DNA from: an uncultured Anaerolineaceae bacterium
Lineage (GTDB): Bacteria > Chloroflexota > Anaerolineae > Aggregatilineales > Aggregatilineaceae
DNA: 24,656 nucleotides
NCBI GenBank assembly: GCA_964567525.1
Contig: CAZMNL010000003.1
Span: forward strand, 1-24,656
Direction of reading: 5' to 3'
Shown: positions 2,244-6,736 of the stretch, in pieces
Position numbering within the stretch: the stretch's first letter is position 1
Layout: the number at the start of each line of letters is the position of its first letter
Notes under the pieces: generated by a model
Seen by the model: only the letters and a program-made list of their open reading frames with translations
Told to the model about the DNA's origin: nothing
The model's database searches: none
Position numbers and translations under genes: made by a program

Positions 2244-2272
2244 TTGCACCATCCCCTTTGTTTGATTATAAT
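2244..2272 (+). promoter_or_regulatory. Putative sigma70 promoter for the 2344-4394 operon
   Basis: TTGCAC (2244-2249), 17-nt spacer, TATAAT (2267-2272). Confidence 0.65.
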
Positions 2273-2343: not shown

Positions 2344-3918
2344 TTGCTTCAGATCCAAACCACCACTGAACAGTACTGGACCGAGAAGTTCGAAATCACG
2401 GACGAAGATATCGAGCATGTCTTCAACGTGTTCCTGGAAACAGAAGCGCCGCTGACCAGTGCCGAACTTGCCAAACACCTCATCAAATCCCGCATCGATC
2501 AGGAAAAACAGCTCTTACGCCACCAGATTGAGCGCGGCGATCTGTTCCAGCCGCAAAACGCCTATACGGTCGGGCAAAGCCTGATTTTCCCGGCCCTGGG
2601 TTATAAAGCCGGTGAAATCGTCGATAAGCGGCCCGGCAATAATCCTGAGCACGGAGAATTTATCGTTATCAAGGTTTCATTCGAATCCGGCGAAGAACTG
2701 GAATTCGCCAGCGAACTGCAAACCGATCATACGCTGAATATCTCGCAAGAAGTGCCGCTGCAAGACCTCGTGGGGACAACAGATATCGAACGCCTGATGC
2801 GAGAGTACGGGGACGATATCATTTACCTGCTCGAAGAACGACTGCGCCAGGAACAGGATGCCGTCTACTTCGCCGGGCGCTGGTTCCTGAAATCGCTGCT
2901 GGCCGATGTCAGCATCGCCCATCTGCACCTTGCTGAAGCGGTACTGGTCATGCACGAGGGCGGCCCACTGGATACCAGGAACATCCTCAGCGAGATCGAC
3001 TTATCGGACGAGGTAAATACGCGGTTGCAGATGTTCTCACTGGATCATGCGCTGTTCAACGACAAACGTTTCGACGAAGTGGGACCAGCAGGGCATGTGA
3101 TGTGGTACCTCAACGACATGGAACCCCCGGAAGTAGCCACCCTACCTCAATGGCTGCGATACGAACCAGTTGACTATAACTGGCAGGTGCTCACCAACGA
3201 ACTGGCCGCGCTGGAACGCGAACTCGATGATGAGCTTTCCAACCTGCGCTCGCCGTCCGACCTGCCGGATTCCGTGACCTTCAGCCTGAATTATCCGCAC
3301 CGCCGTGCCGGTACACTGCCGCTAAGCTCGCGCGTGCGCCACCTCTTCCCCACCGCTTATGAAGCACCGCGCGTTTTGATGACGCTGGTGGACGGGCAAA
3401 CCGGGGACGAAATGATTGGCTGGGTCGTGCGCGAGAATCGTTATGTATTTGGGCTGAACGACTTCTACCGCCGCCATAAACTGCCGGTCGGCGCGTACAT
3501 CACGGTCCGCCGCTCGGACGATCCCTCTCGTGTGATCATCGACTATCACGCCCACCGCCCCCGCACAGAGTGGATTCGCCTGGCCGTGCCCCACGAGGGT
3601 GGGAACCTGACCTTTACCAATGACAAGCGTGCAATCGGGGCCGAATACGACGACCTGATGGTCTTCGGGACCGATAACCTGGCCGGGCTGGATTCCTACT
3701 GGGTTTCCGCCGCCGCCAGCAAACCCACGCTTTTGGACACCATTCGAGATGTTTTGGGCGAACTGCAACACCTGACACCACAACAAGCCGTTCACGCCAA
3801 AACCGTCTACAGCACCGTAAACGCCACACGCCGCTGTCCACCCGGCCCAATATTCGCTGCGTTGGTTGCCCAGCCAGCCTTTGAGCACGTGGGCGGCCCC
3901 TATTGGCGCTTAACCTGA
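2344..3918 (+). CDS. Hypothetical multidomain protein, 524 aa (putative wHTH repeats, CarD-like and B3-like modules)
   Basis: Long ORF with TTG start behind a good promoter and typical composition. No enzyme motif recognised; domain guesses are by eye (see findings). Confidence 0.85.
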   Translation: MLQIQTTTEQYWTEKFEITDEDIEHVFNVFLETEAPLTSAELAKHLIKSRIDQEKQLLRHQIERGDLFQPQNAYTVGQSLIFPALGYKAGEIVDKRPGNNPEHGEFIVIKVSFESGEELEFASELQTDHTLNISQEVPLQDLVGTTDIERLMREYGDDIIYLLEERLRQEQDAVYFAGRWFLKSLLADVSIAHLHLAEAVLVMHEGGPLDTRNILSEIDLSDEVNTRLQMFSLDHALFNDKRFDEVGPAGHVMWYLNDMEPPEVATLPQWLRYEPVDYNWQVLTNELAALERELDDELSNLRSPSDLPDSVTFSLNYPHRRAGTLPLSSRVRHLFPTAYEAPRVLMTLVDGQTGDEMIGWVVRENRYVFGLNDFYRRHKLPVGAYITVRRSDDPSRVIIDYHAHRPRTEWIRLAVPHEGGNLTFTNDKRAIGAEYDDLMVFGTDNLAGLDSYWVSAAASKPTLLDTIRDVLGELQHLTPQQAVHAKTVYSTVNATRRCPPGPIFAALVAQPAFEHVGGPYWRLT

Positions 3919-3947: not shown

Positions 3948-4394
3948 GTGAGTTCATCAGCCAGCACAGCCAGCAGACGCATTAAACCGACGCTTGAAAC
4001 CAAGTTCCACATTGATTACAACTGGTGGGAACGCGAAGAACGCGAGCTGCGCGTCTACTTGCTGAGTCACTTGCCACCGCAGCAGCGAGAATTGTTTGCC
4101 AGGCAGACAGATGCTGACGCCGAAGAAATTGATTTTGTGGACCCGGTGACCGCCCAGGTTTACAAAGTCGATCCGCTGCGTCGGGCGCTGCAATCTGCCA
4201 GCGAACAAGAAGACTTCATCACCCCGCATACCTCGTTGGTCGATGCCGTCTTTCGCGTCTTTCTGGCGAACAACAATACCCCCCTCACCCCACTTGAACT
4301 GGGAGAACGCACCGGTCGCCAACCAATGACGATTCTGCGAACGCTGACAGGGCAAAATGTGTACAAGGGGCTGCGTCCGTTCATCGAAAAGTAA
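3948..4394 (+). CDS. Hypothetical protein, 148 aa, with a C-terminal winged-helix-like segment
   Basis: GTG start with AGGA SD, 29 nt after the upstream stop. C-terminal SLVDAVFRVFLANNNTPLTPLELGERTGRQPMTILRTL has an HTH-like pattern. Confidence 0.85.
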   Translation: MSSSASTASRRIKPTLETKFHIDYNWWEREERELRVYLLSHLPPQQRELFARQTDADAEEIDFVDPVTAQVYKVDPLRRALQSASEQEDFITPHTSLVDAVFRVFLANNNTPLTPLELGERTGRQPMTILRTLTGQNVYKGLRPFIEK

Positions 4395-4424: not shown

Positions 4425-4454
4425 TTGACACACGCCACCCCCGTCTTTTACAAT
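4425..4454 (+). promoter_or_regulatory. Putative sigma70 promoter of the tRNA
   Basis: TTGACA (4425-4430), 18-nt spacer, TACAAT (4449-4454), ending 11 nt before the tRNA. Confidence 0.7.
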
Positions 4455-4465
4455 GGCGGCGGCTG

Positions 4466-4539
4466 GCCCCTGTAGCTCAGTGGACTAGAGCAACTGCCTT
4501 CTAAGCAGCAGGTCGGGGGTTCGAATCCCTCCAGGGGCG
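4466..4539 (+). tRNA. tRNA-Arg (anticodon TCT); 3' CCA not encoded
   Basis: Acceptor stem GCCCCTG/CAGGGGC, D-arm TAGCTCAGTGGACTAGAGC, anticodon loop CTTCTAA (TCT at 4500-4502), T-loop GTTCGAATC. Discriminator G4539 is followed by CAC, not CCA. Confidence 0.96.
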
Positions 4540-4562
4540 CACGGCAAAGCACAGCACTATAC

Positions 4563-4639: not shown

Positions 4640-5917
4640 TTAGGACATGATCGACGCGTACAGCGCCTGTGTTTCGGGTTCGGGTTCCTGCCCGTCTTCC
4701 TTCAGCAGTTCGATCAACTTCTGGTAATGCGCGGCGGCCTCGCTGCGACGGCCCAGGCTGGCGTAAAGCTGCATGATCTGGCGATGGATCGGCTCATAGC
4801 GGTCGTTTTCACCTACCGCCCGCTGAAGCAATCCCAGCGCATGCTGCTGGCGACCTTCGTCCAGCCGGATTTGCGCCATCTGGCTCAGCGCTTCGAGATA
4901 GCCCTTCTGGTAATCCGCGCGCCGCTCGACAATCCATTGATCGGTGTGCCCTTGCAGGAACGGCCCCTGATACATATCAATCGCCGCCTGCCAGACGGAA
5001 GCTTTATCTTCAACCTCTGGCGAACGCCCGTCCACCAGTGCGCCCACAAATTCCATAATGTCGTAATGTACGGAAACCTGAGGATTGACACGGTAATAGC
5101 CGCCGTCATGCACCAGCACATCGAAGTTGAGCGCCTTGTGCAAACGCCGCTTGGTCACATGGAACACGTTCACGGCCTGGTCATTTTCCAGGTCCGGCCA
5201 GAACGCCTGGCAGATTTCCGAACGGGTCACGACCGGGCGATCCAGCGCGAAGAAAAACAGCAGGCGCGGCAGATGCCCTTCCCAGGTTTCGATCTGCTCG
5301 TCATTGAGCGAAACATACCCCGGCCCCAATGCTTGCACATCCAGGTGCGTGTCACCGGAAGTACGCATCCCGTAAAAGTTGTTCGCCACAACCTGATCGT
5401 CTTCCAGGATAACGGCTTTACGCTGGGCGATCAGCGATACCCAGGGAAGGCGCGGAAGCGTGCGGCTGTTGATCAACATCTGGCAGTGCTGCGGCAACCG
5501 CAAAATGACCTTTTCGACAAACGCCTGGATATCATCCGCGCTGTCTGTGCGGTCGTATTCATCCAGGATCAACAGAAACGGTTCGCCGCTTAACTCGCTG
5601 AGATCGGCGACAAAGGCTTGCAGCAGCAGCTCGAAGTCCAGGTTTTCCTCGGTTTCAAAATGAATCTGGTTCAGGTGCCGCCCAAAAGTCGGGTGCTGGT
5701 TCGCCAGATCGTGCGTGATACCGAGCAAGAAAGAACGGATATTGACATCATCCGGCCCCATCGCATAGAAAAAAACCTGGGTGTTTGGGTCGCTCATCAA
5801 CTGCGCCACTAACACAGAACGGTAACGCCCATCAGGATGCAGCAGCACTACGCTAGCATCGCGTGCGCGTTCCTTAAATGCCTGGTATGAGGCAGTAACC
5901 AAATTGTTCAGTTCCAT
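4640..5917 (-). CDS. BTAD/SARP-family transcriptional regulator with a degenerate MalT-like (STAND) N-terminal domain
   Basis: N-terminal Walker-B-like FLLILDEYD and LINSRTLP; central wHTH (VVTRSEICQAFWPD...FHVTKRRLHKAL); C-terminal BTAD (AIDMYQGPFL...W...ERR, EPIHRQIMQLY...GRRSEA, EPEPET). Confidence 0.88.
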   Translation of the reverse strand: MELNNLVTASYQAFKERARDASVVLLHPDGRYRSVLVAQLMSDPNTQVFFYAMGPDDVNIRSFLLGITHDLANQHPTFGRHLNQIHFETEENLDFELLLQAFVADLSELSGEPFLLILDEYDRTDSADDIQAFVEKVILRLPQHCQMLINSRTLPRLPWVSLIAQRKAVILEDDQVVANNFYGMRTSGDTHLDVQALGPGYVSLNDEQIETWEGHLPRLLFFFALDRPVVTRSEICQAFWPDLENDQAVNVFHVTKRRLHKALNFDVLVHDGGYYRVNPQVSVHYDIMEFVGALVDGRSPEVEDKASVWQAAIDMYQGPFLQGHTDQWIVERRADYQKGYLEALSQMAQIRLDEGRQQHALGLLQRAVGENDRYEPIHRQIMQLYASLGRRSEAAAHYQKLIELLKEDGQEPEPETQALYASIMS

Positions 5918-6289: not shown

Positions 6290-6736
6290 ATGTACAAAAC
6301 AGTGCGAAATCTAACAATCCTGGGCGTGGGCCTGGGGGCAAGTGCCGTTGTAGGCTGGTTATTACTGCGCGAAACCAAGCGCCAGGACAGCGAAGCCAGT
6401 GTCACAATCAAGTCGCAACGCCGTCAATCCGAACTGGATGAATCTCCGCAGATTGTGCTGCCGCTGGATGCCCTGGATGCCGAAGATGATACGCCTCCCC
6501 CCTCAACACGCCATGACACCAACGCGCAAACTGACGATCTGACACAGATCAACGATATTGGCCCCCGGTTTGCCGAAGCGCTGGCCGCCATCGGCATCAC
6601 CCGCTTTGCCGATCTCGCGCAGCAAGATGCGGAGACTCTGGCGGCGCGCCTGGCCGAACATGTCACCGTCCGCGCGCGGCGTATTCAAGAAAAAGACTGG
6701 ATCGGGCAGGCGGCACGGCTTGCAGAACAGCGCTAA
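6290..6736 (+). CDS. Membrane-anchored helix-hairpin-helix protein (COG3743/DUF4332-like C-terminal HhH domain)
   Basis: N-terminal hydrophobic helix (LTILGVGLGASAVVGWLLL), acidic linker, then DDLTQINDIGPRFAEALAAIGITRFADLA...DWIGQA, the HhH module seen fused to NuoE and RplU. Confidence 0.8.
   Translation: MYKTVRNLTILGVGLGASAVVGWLLLRETKRQDSEASVTIKSQRRQSELDESPQIVLPLDALDAEDDTPPPSTRHDTNAQTDDLTQINDIGPRFAEALAAIGITRFADLAQQDAETLAARLAEHVTVRARRIQEKDWIGQAARLAEQR

Follow-up and report, generated by a model that had tools for sequence, protein, structure and literature searches.

We analysed a window of 24,656 nucleotides of DNA from an uncultured Anaerolineaceae bacterium (contig CAZMNL010000003.1, positions 1 to 24,656), whose genome (assembly GCA_964567525.1, G000 in our set) was binned from a microbial-mat metagenome and is 85% complete. 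On the forward strand of this window, an open reading frame (ORF) at 2344..3918 encodes an acidic multi-domain protein of 524 amino acids, hereafter the large protein, and 29 nucleotides downstream a second gene (3948..4394, same strand, GTG start) encodes a partner of 148 amino acids that belongs to no known family. The two genes are the subject of this report: they are kept as a pair by nearly all Anaerolineae, and the family of the large protein is an uncharacterised new architecture made from known modules.

The coordinates, the length and the TTG start of the large gene agree exactly with an earlier annotation made from the nucleotide letters and their ORFs (the sequence-only reading). 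Since the upstream in-frame stop lies only three codons before the TTG (open frame of 527 amino acids) and full-length homologues begin their alignment at residue 1, this start is sound. Homologous proteins fall into more than 4000 clusters at 90% identity, with 587 representatives at 50% clustering, and all named ones are called "hypothetical protein" and come from Chloroflexota/Anaerolineae metagenome bins. The stretch 2344–3918 is a real gene under strong constraint. Scans with Pfam, NCBIfam and PADLOC gave no match for the large protein, its segments or the partner, PDB sequence searches with the large protein alone and with its family profile returned noise only, and the Atlas feature search with both proteins recovered only their own unnamed clusters. 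No RNA datasets carrying the gene were listed, the listed matches being DNA runs of a single microbial-mat study.

The large protein is single-copy in its own genome, and in a sample of the phylum exactly one match was present in each of the 35 genomes listed for the same order or class, other classes giving weak and partial matches only. A wider sample of the class, comprising 201 Anaerolineae genomes of at least 90% completeness, was matched by the large-protein family profile in 190 genomes, mostly as a single copy, and by the partner profile in 192, with class-wide identities of 40–75% for the pair. Both genes are absent from an identical set of eight genomes, among them every sampled member of two families (three genomes each), and only four genomes are discordant: one carries the partner alone, in two the partner sits at the edge of a contig, and the fourth has a weak partial match to the large protein. 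The partner lies immediately downstream in all 11 related loci, in three deep-branching loci and on long contigs. The large gene and its partner are therefore present or lost together, and adjacent wherever both were located.

Three prediction runs for a complex of the two proteins, which agree in at least 97% of their contacts, gave a score of 0.57, against 0.00 for the best control, with a predicted local distance difference test value (pLDDT) of at least 74 for the partner; in calibration, 58 of 80 solved complexes and 2 of 110 mismatches attained the passing mark, and a pass at or below 0.60 counts as weak. Because of the strict co-occurrence, we consider it likely that the large protein binds the partner, and on the predicted complex the two would form a heterodimer. 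A natural fusion of both was not found, nor any longer protein containing the partner, which is weak evidence. The extension of the homologue P0209 was considered as a fused partner and rejected, as it is unrelated to the partner.

The AlphaFold model of the large protein, computed from a 63-sequence alignment, has a pLDDT of 94 and a predicted template modelling score (pTM) of 0.82, and contains no disordered stretch (no segment below 50). Five ordered modules follow one another: a three-helix module, an SH3/Tudor barrel, a divergent HARE-HTH, a B3-type pseudobarrel and a winged helix. The segment boundaries drawn by eye in the sequence-only reading agree well with these predicted domains (barrel strands at 79–123, winged helix at 191–256, a barrel core at 310–401 that extends to 433, and a terminal β-hairpin wing at 513–523), with the exception of residues 20–48. 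The latter had been taken for a start resembling a winged helix-turn-helix (HTH), but DSSP places helices at 9–15, 20–33 and 39–64 with no wing, making them part of a three-helix N-terminal module (residues 1–65; 2344..2538, forward strand). In hhalign comparisons, the HTH-like C-terminal segment of the partner (residues 95–138) matches residues 21–68 of the large protein with a probability of 66–81% (E 1e-5 to 5e-5).

At the other end, residues 446–524 (3679..3915, forward strand) comprise two helices and a C-terminal winged helix (485–524) by DSSP and structure matching; the latter superposes on the C-terminal winged helix of MCM (2ma3) with Z 8.6 and a root-mean-square deviation (rmsd) of 1.6 over 64 aligned residues, and the wing anticipated at 513–523 is indeed present as its terminal β-hairpin. 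The further idea of a repeated winged HTH resembling the delta subunit of RNA polymerase (RNAP) found no support at the sequence level and was discarded: the N-terminal module and the C-terminal winged helix score 1–2% against genuine HARE-HTH domains, and 2–17% against each other and the middle HARE domain (hhalign probabilities). As the sequence-only reading had supposed for this combination of modules, no characterised protein with the same architecture was found in Pfam, NCBIfam, PDB or the literature searched.

Fold comparison assigns residues 73–124 (2560..2715, forward strand) to an SH3/Tudor/KOW-like five-stranded barrel, which reaches a pLDDT of 89 when folded alone. Its best fold matches are a designed SH3 protein (Z 6.7), EF-P (5.5), Thermus thermophilus CarD (5.3), the UvrD/PcrA Tudor (5.2) and Mycobacterium tuberculosis CarD (5.1), followed by chromatin Tudors (Z 5.1–5.2) and NusG/Spt5 KOW domains (4.5–4.9); Foldseek and Atlas agree on these matches, with a TM of 0.40 for the PcrA_UvrD_tudor cluster. 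In the sequence-only reading, residues 74–121 had been assigned to the RNAP-interacting Tudor of CarD and Mfd. The SH3/Tudor-like fold holds, whereas the assignment to CarD in particular is only partly supported, in view of the tied Z values and of the hidden Markov model (HMM) of the CarD/Mfd RNAP-interacting domain (CarD_TRCF_RID, PF02559), which at a cut-off of E ≤ 10 still found no match anywhere in the own genome but was positive in 12 of 14 control genomes. In common with CarD/CdnL, Mfd and the UvrD/PcrA Tudors, the large protein has a five-stranded SH3/Tudor-like barrel that follows a strand of the F/Y-x-V-G type; in contrast to CarD/CdnL, it has neither a PF02559 match nor a CarD-type C-terminal domain, and the matches of residues 73–124 tie with EF-P, eIF5A, KOW domains and chromatin Tudors.

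The missing RNAP-interacting domain of the own genome deserves a separate comment. Mfd was found by the same domain search in 40 of 40 related genomes, and the lack of both CarD and Mfd domains in this incomplete bin most likely reflects an assembly gap; a true absence was accordingly set aside. We also considered, and rejected, the pair as a replacement of CarD: about 67 of the 201 class genomes, or roughly a third, encode a second ORF with this domain, and it coexists with the pair in about 60 of them. An excess of such ORFs among the genomes without the pair (six of eight) rests on about three lineages, and a same-genus contrast (G397 versus G320) is undone by a further genome, G456.

The middle domain, residues 188–262 (2905..3129, forward strand), is a divergent and unusually acidic HARE-HTH winged helix of the RNAP-delta/ASXL type, as judged from hhalign, fold and invariant columns. 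A profile of residues 185–265 built from 63 sequences was compared with a profile of 24 genuine PF05066 domains extracted from other Chloroflexota, and matched it with a probability of 86–90% (E 2e-7 to 6e-7) over 75–80 columns, whereas the SH3 and B3 segments used as controls scored 0. The predicted fold matches the delta subunit of Staphylococcus aureus RNAP (8x6g_E, whose identity was confirmed by a sequence search with a genuine HARE-HTH domain) with Z 7.7, an rmsd of 3.1, 75 of 84 residues aligned and 20% identity, other winged helices tying within one Z unit of this match. Five residues of the domain, D240, R242, F243, W254 and P261, are invariant in the 63-sequence alignment, the first four of which make up the HARE wing motif (D-x-RF ... 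W-x-L). The PF05066 HMM itself matched neither the large protein nor its 135–300 segment, and a six-frame search with it across the genome was likewise negative at E ≤ 10. We call the domain a divergent HARE-HTH because of the full-length profile match and the wing motif, even though it stays below the Pfam threshold; the proposal of a module resembling RNAP delta/HARE-HTH at 194–261 is thereby supported by profile-profile comparison with negative controls and by the delta fold.

The delta N-domain is a protein-docking module on RNAP and not a classical DNA binder. The middle domain of the large protein resembles RNAP delta (RpoE of Bacillota, PF05066) in the D-x-R-F ... W-x-L wing motif, in an extra helix and in its acidity. 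The differences are nevertheless considerable, as delta consists of a domain of about 90 residues with a disordered acidic tail and belongs to Bacillota, whereas the large protein is fully ordered, carries four further domains, has an obligate small partner and occurs in a different phylum. In the literature, HARE-HTH is treated as the delta N-domain and as a proposed reader of modified DNA bases (PMC10853773, PMC11037411), and among the papers searched none was found that describes this architecture or pairs HARE-HTH with a pseudobarrel. In other Chloroflexota classes, we also observed proteins of about 345–395 amino acids with two tandem genuine HARE-HTH domains (loci L031–L039); such tandem proteins are common in several non-Anaerolineae families of the phylum, and none was found in the sampled Anaerolineae.

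Residues 307–436 (3262..3651, forward strand) are modelled as a seven-stranded B3/EcoRII-N-type pseudobarrel with an extra β-hairpin (403–433) and a net charge of +3. Residues 307–405 superpose on plant FUS3 with Z 9.2 (97 of 106 residues, rmsd 2.8), on ARF1 (8.7), RAV1 (7.7) and VRN1 (7.5), and on the bacterial LlaJI.R1-N (7.4) and BfiI-C (7.3). B3 proteins also head the Foldseek PDB list (VAL1, TM 0.69), and plant B3 proteins make up 29 of the 30 fold matches listed from Swiss-Prot, so the B3/EcoRII-N barrel that the sequence-only reading had proposed at 310–401 is borne out at the level of the fold. Along with this likeness to the B3, EcoRII-N and BfiI-C proteins, there are differences: the barrel described here shows no similarity at the HMM level, bears the added hairpin and is not attached to a nuclease. 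The barrel would bind DNA, and its basic charge is an indirect pointer to such binding.

The charge of the large protein is otherwise strongly negative, at a net −33 (family mean −26.5) and with an isoelectric point of 4.9. The HARE domain carries −10, compared with a mean of +0.8 for genuine PF05066 domains, and the B3 barrel is the only domain with a net positive charge; the HTH-like C-terminal segment of the partner is mildly basic (+3). Conservation is highest in the HARE domain, with a mean pairwise identity of 44%, and second highest in the SH3 barrel (41%), the partner having 52%. Several lineages encode a short form of about 266 amino acids that corresponds to residues 1–260 (N-terminal helices, SH3 and HARE) and is directly followed by the partner, as in locus L026, 2617–3849 (genome G192), where the partner starts 10 nucleotides after a 266-amino-acid protein; families f7, f9, f110, f114 and f116 also have it. 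In genomes with the short form, the B3 and C-terminal winged-helix half was not found elsewhere. Since this is all that the short forms retain, the acidic N-terminal half and the partner appear to be the indispensable core of the pair, and the B3 and winged-helix half an accessory.

These properties bear on the possibility that the large protein is a conventional sequence-specific transcription regulator or a nucleoid-associated protein, which places several winged helices and the B3 barrel on DNA and has no stable link to RNAP. Three modules of the HTH type together with a B3 barrel, conserved across the class, are what such a protein could look like, and the basic segment of the partner would fit as well. 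Nucleoid proteins and most repressors, however, are basic or neutral at their DNA-binding domains, whereas the net charge and isoelectric point given above are strongly acidic and the HARE domain departs from its near-neutral genuine counterparts; the only basic domain is the one lost in short forms, and no conserved target gene lies beside the pair. This charge makes a basic nucleoid protein or repressor of the classical kind unlikely, and the nucleoid protein suggested by the sequence-only reading fits poorly in that classical sense; for the regulator explanation as a whole, we see a low probability.

Beyond the class, the relatives in other Chloroflexota share only the HARE, B3 and winged-helix module, with unrelated N-termini and no partner nearby. 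In AFDB clusters, the same three-domain module is fused to adenine DNA methylase, DUF2357, XPB-N and EVE domains and occurs in several sigma-70 region 4 proteins. The distant paralogues P0208 (979 amino acids) and P0213 (1105 amino acids) align with the large protein over residues 3–522, that is, over all five modules, at 31% identity, and carry a C-terminal N6-methyltransferase. The operon of P0213 is similar to type-I restriction–modification (R-M) systems, with half a type-I specificity subunit, a second methyltransferase and a DpdF/DinG/RecQ-like helicase. In the order of its contig (L029, 1–13750), three small ORFs of no known function precede an RNase T + DinG + RecQ/DpdF-like helicase of 1637–1810 amino acids, followed by the 1105-amino-acid Tudor-HARE-B3-wH-methyltransferase fusion, the half specificity subunit, the second N6-methyltransferase and a Pol-beta nucleotidyltransferase/HEPN pair; we regard this operon as R-M-like or defence-like. 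What the fusion relatives have in common with the large protein is thus the alignable set of five modules (P0208, P0213) or the recurrent HARE, B3 and winged-helix part (AFDB proteins). They differ in their enzymatic or sigma-like domains and in their R-M-like operons, and no partner gene was seen beside P0213, whereas the large protein of Anaerolineae stands by itself, is found in nearly the whole class and always has its partner gene beside it.

The fusions raise the question of whether the large protein is a stand-alone target-recognition or modification-reading part of an R-M or other defence system, in which HARE-HTH and B3 would recognise modified or foreign DNA on behalf of an enzyme whose gene lies elsewhere. 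Apart from the whole-module methyltransferase fusions, the R-M-like operon of P0213 and the AFDB relatives with DUF2357, adenine methylase or EVE domains, this explanation can draw on the bacterial B3-like barrels known from EcoRII, BfiI, NgoAVII and LlaJI, and on the proposed reading of modified bases by HARE-HTH (PMC10853773, PMC11037411). Defence genes, though, are patchy, variable and island-borne, while the pair is mostly single-copy, occurs in about 95% of the class genomes and retains 40–75% identity; it has no PADLOC match, sits among housekeeping genes with no linked enzyme gene, and in its short forms keeps the partner despite dropping the B3 barrel. A role in defence is improbable because the distribution is near-universal, mostly single-copy and conserved, and among the explanations considered here it is the one that we rate lowest.

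The genes around the pair were examined as well. Past close relatives there is no conserved neighbourhood beyond the pair itself: aconitase and a tRNA flank it in closer relatives only, and the genes around it have housekeeping roles (aconitase, a tRNA, peptidases). Directly after the two genes, the window contains a tRNA-Arg(TCT) at 4466–4540, with a near-consensus promoter, TTGACA-18-TACAAT, at 4425–4454 (together 4425–4540); as this tRNA has its own strong promoter, the operon consists of two genes. Upstream of this operon, a possible promoter, TTGCAC-17-TATAAT, can be read by eye at 2244..2272 on the forward strand; the consensus promoter scan did not list it because its first hexamer matches at three of six positions only. 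Further downstream, the window encodes on the reverse strand (4640–5917) a 425-amino-acid protein with a BTAD domain at its C-terminus and a weak NACHT-like match (NPHP3_N) at the N-terminus, by these domain matches a putative AfsR/SARP-like STAND regulator, and on the forward strand (6290–6736) another protein of 148 amino acids, with helix-hairpin-helix, Cdd1 and DUF4332 matches. In the close relatives L027 and L028, the former is kept beside the pair and the latter is found in the same position.

An adaptor for another DNA-associated machine, active in replication, repair or chromosome segregation, would employ the Tudor barrel and the winged helices as UvrD/PcrA, MCM and kleisin/ScpB-type proteins do. 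Such a function is in line with the fold neighbours of the modules, which include the UvrD/PcrA Tudor, the SH3 domains of RecD/Dda/Pif1 helicases, the MCM C-terminal winged helix and the winged helices of Scc1/ScpAB. These are generic fold similarities with Z 4.5–8.6, however, and the gene neighbourhood provides no link to replication or repair genes. We consider this explanation distinctly unlikely.

Taken at its most general, the interpretation that we favour is that the large protein acts as an acidic adaptor from DNA to protein, in a two-protein module of nearly all Anaerolineae, and we hold it tentatively, with a confidence slightly under one half. The B3 barrel, as the sole basic part, and the C-terminal winged helix would contact DNA, and the B3 end may read a sequence or a base modification; in the distant paralogues, this module is found joined to N6-adenine methyltransferases. 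The acidic and most conserved N-terminal half, with its SH3/Tudor barrel and HARE-HTH, would dock together with the partner onto a protein target. The B3 and winged-helix end seems to stem from DNA-reading modules of the R-M type.

With respect to the protein target, RNAP is the most plausible candidate, because these folds serve to bind RNAP in other proteins, HARE-HTH in RNAP delta and Tudor-like barrels in CarD, Mfd and UvrD; by analogy with these proteins the assignment is conceivable, but on the doubtful side. A still more specific proposal is that the pair is an Anaerolineae-specific general transcription factor, a heterodimer that sits on RNAP via the delta-like HARE-HTH and the CarD/UvrD-like Tudor, and whose long form tethers RNAP to DNA or reads methylation via a B3 barrel domesticated from R-M systems. 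We deem this full version unlikely as it stands.

Several observations weigh against the adaptor and its proposed link to transcription. The assignments of B3 and HARE-HTH depend on fold or profile-profile comparison: the B3 (PF02362) and EcoRII-N (PF09217) HMMs have no match in the genome at E ≤ 10, and HARE-HTH lies below the Pfam threshold in all 63 family members scanned, a single one of which matched at all, with E 0.17. For small domains, moreover, common folds can reach Z values of 5–9 through similarity of shape only. As a match of the Tudor barrel, CarD (Z 5.1–5.3) ties with other SH3-like barrels, and small CarD-like genes exist alongside the pair in the roughly 60 genomes mentioned above. 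Apart from the partner, no conserved neighbour hints at transcription. Finally, a net charge of −33 would also suit a protein whose main role is that of a nucleic-acid mimic or protein chaperone, and not that of a reader of DNA.

Sediments, microbial mats, digesters and wastewater are rich in Anaerolineae, whose core machinery has hardly been studied directly. Kept by 95% of the class, unnamed in databases and composed of modules with which other bacteria dock onto RNAP (the HARE-HTH of delta, the Tudor barrel) or read DNA (the B3 barrel), the pair is a strong candidate for a core factor specific to this lineage, in transcription or in chromosome biology. Cultured Anaerolineae and recombinant expression exist, which makes the claim directly testable. 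If true, it would add a bacterial, non-nuclease context to the B3 fold, known above all from transcription factors of plants, and would represent a clear case of a DNA-reading module of R-M systems that was domesticated to a housekeeping role.

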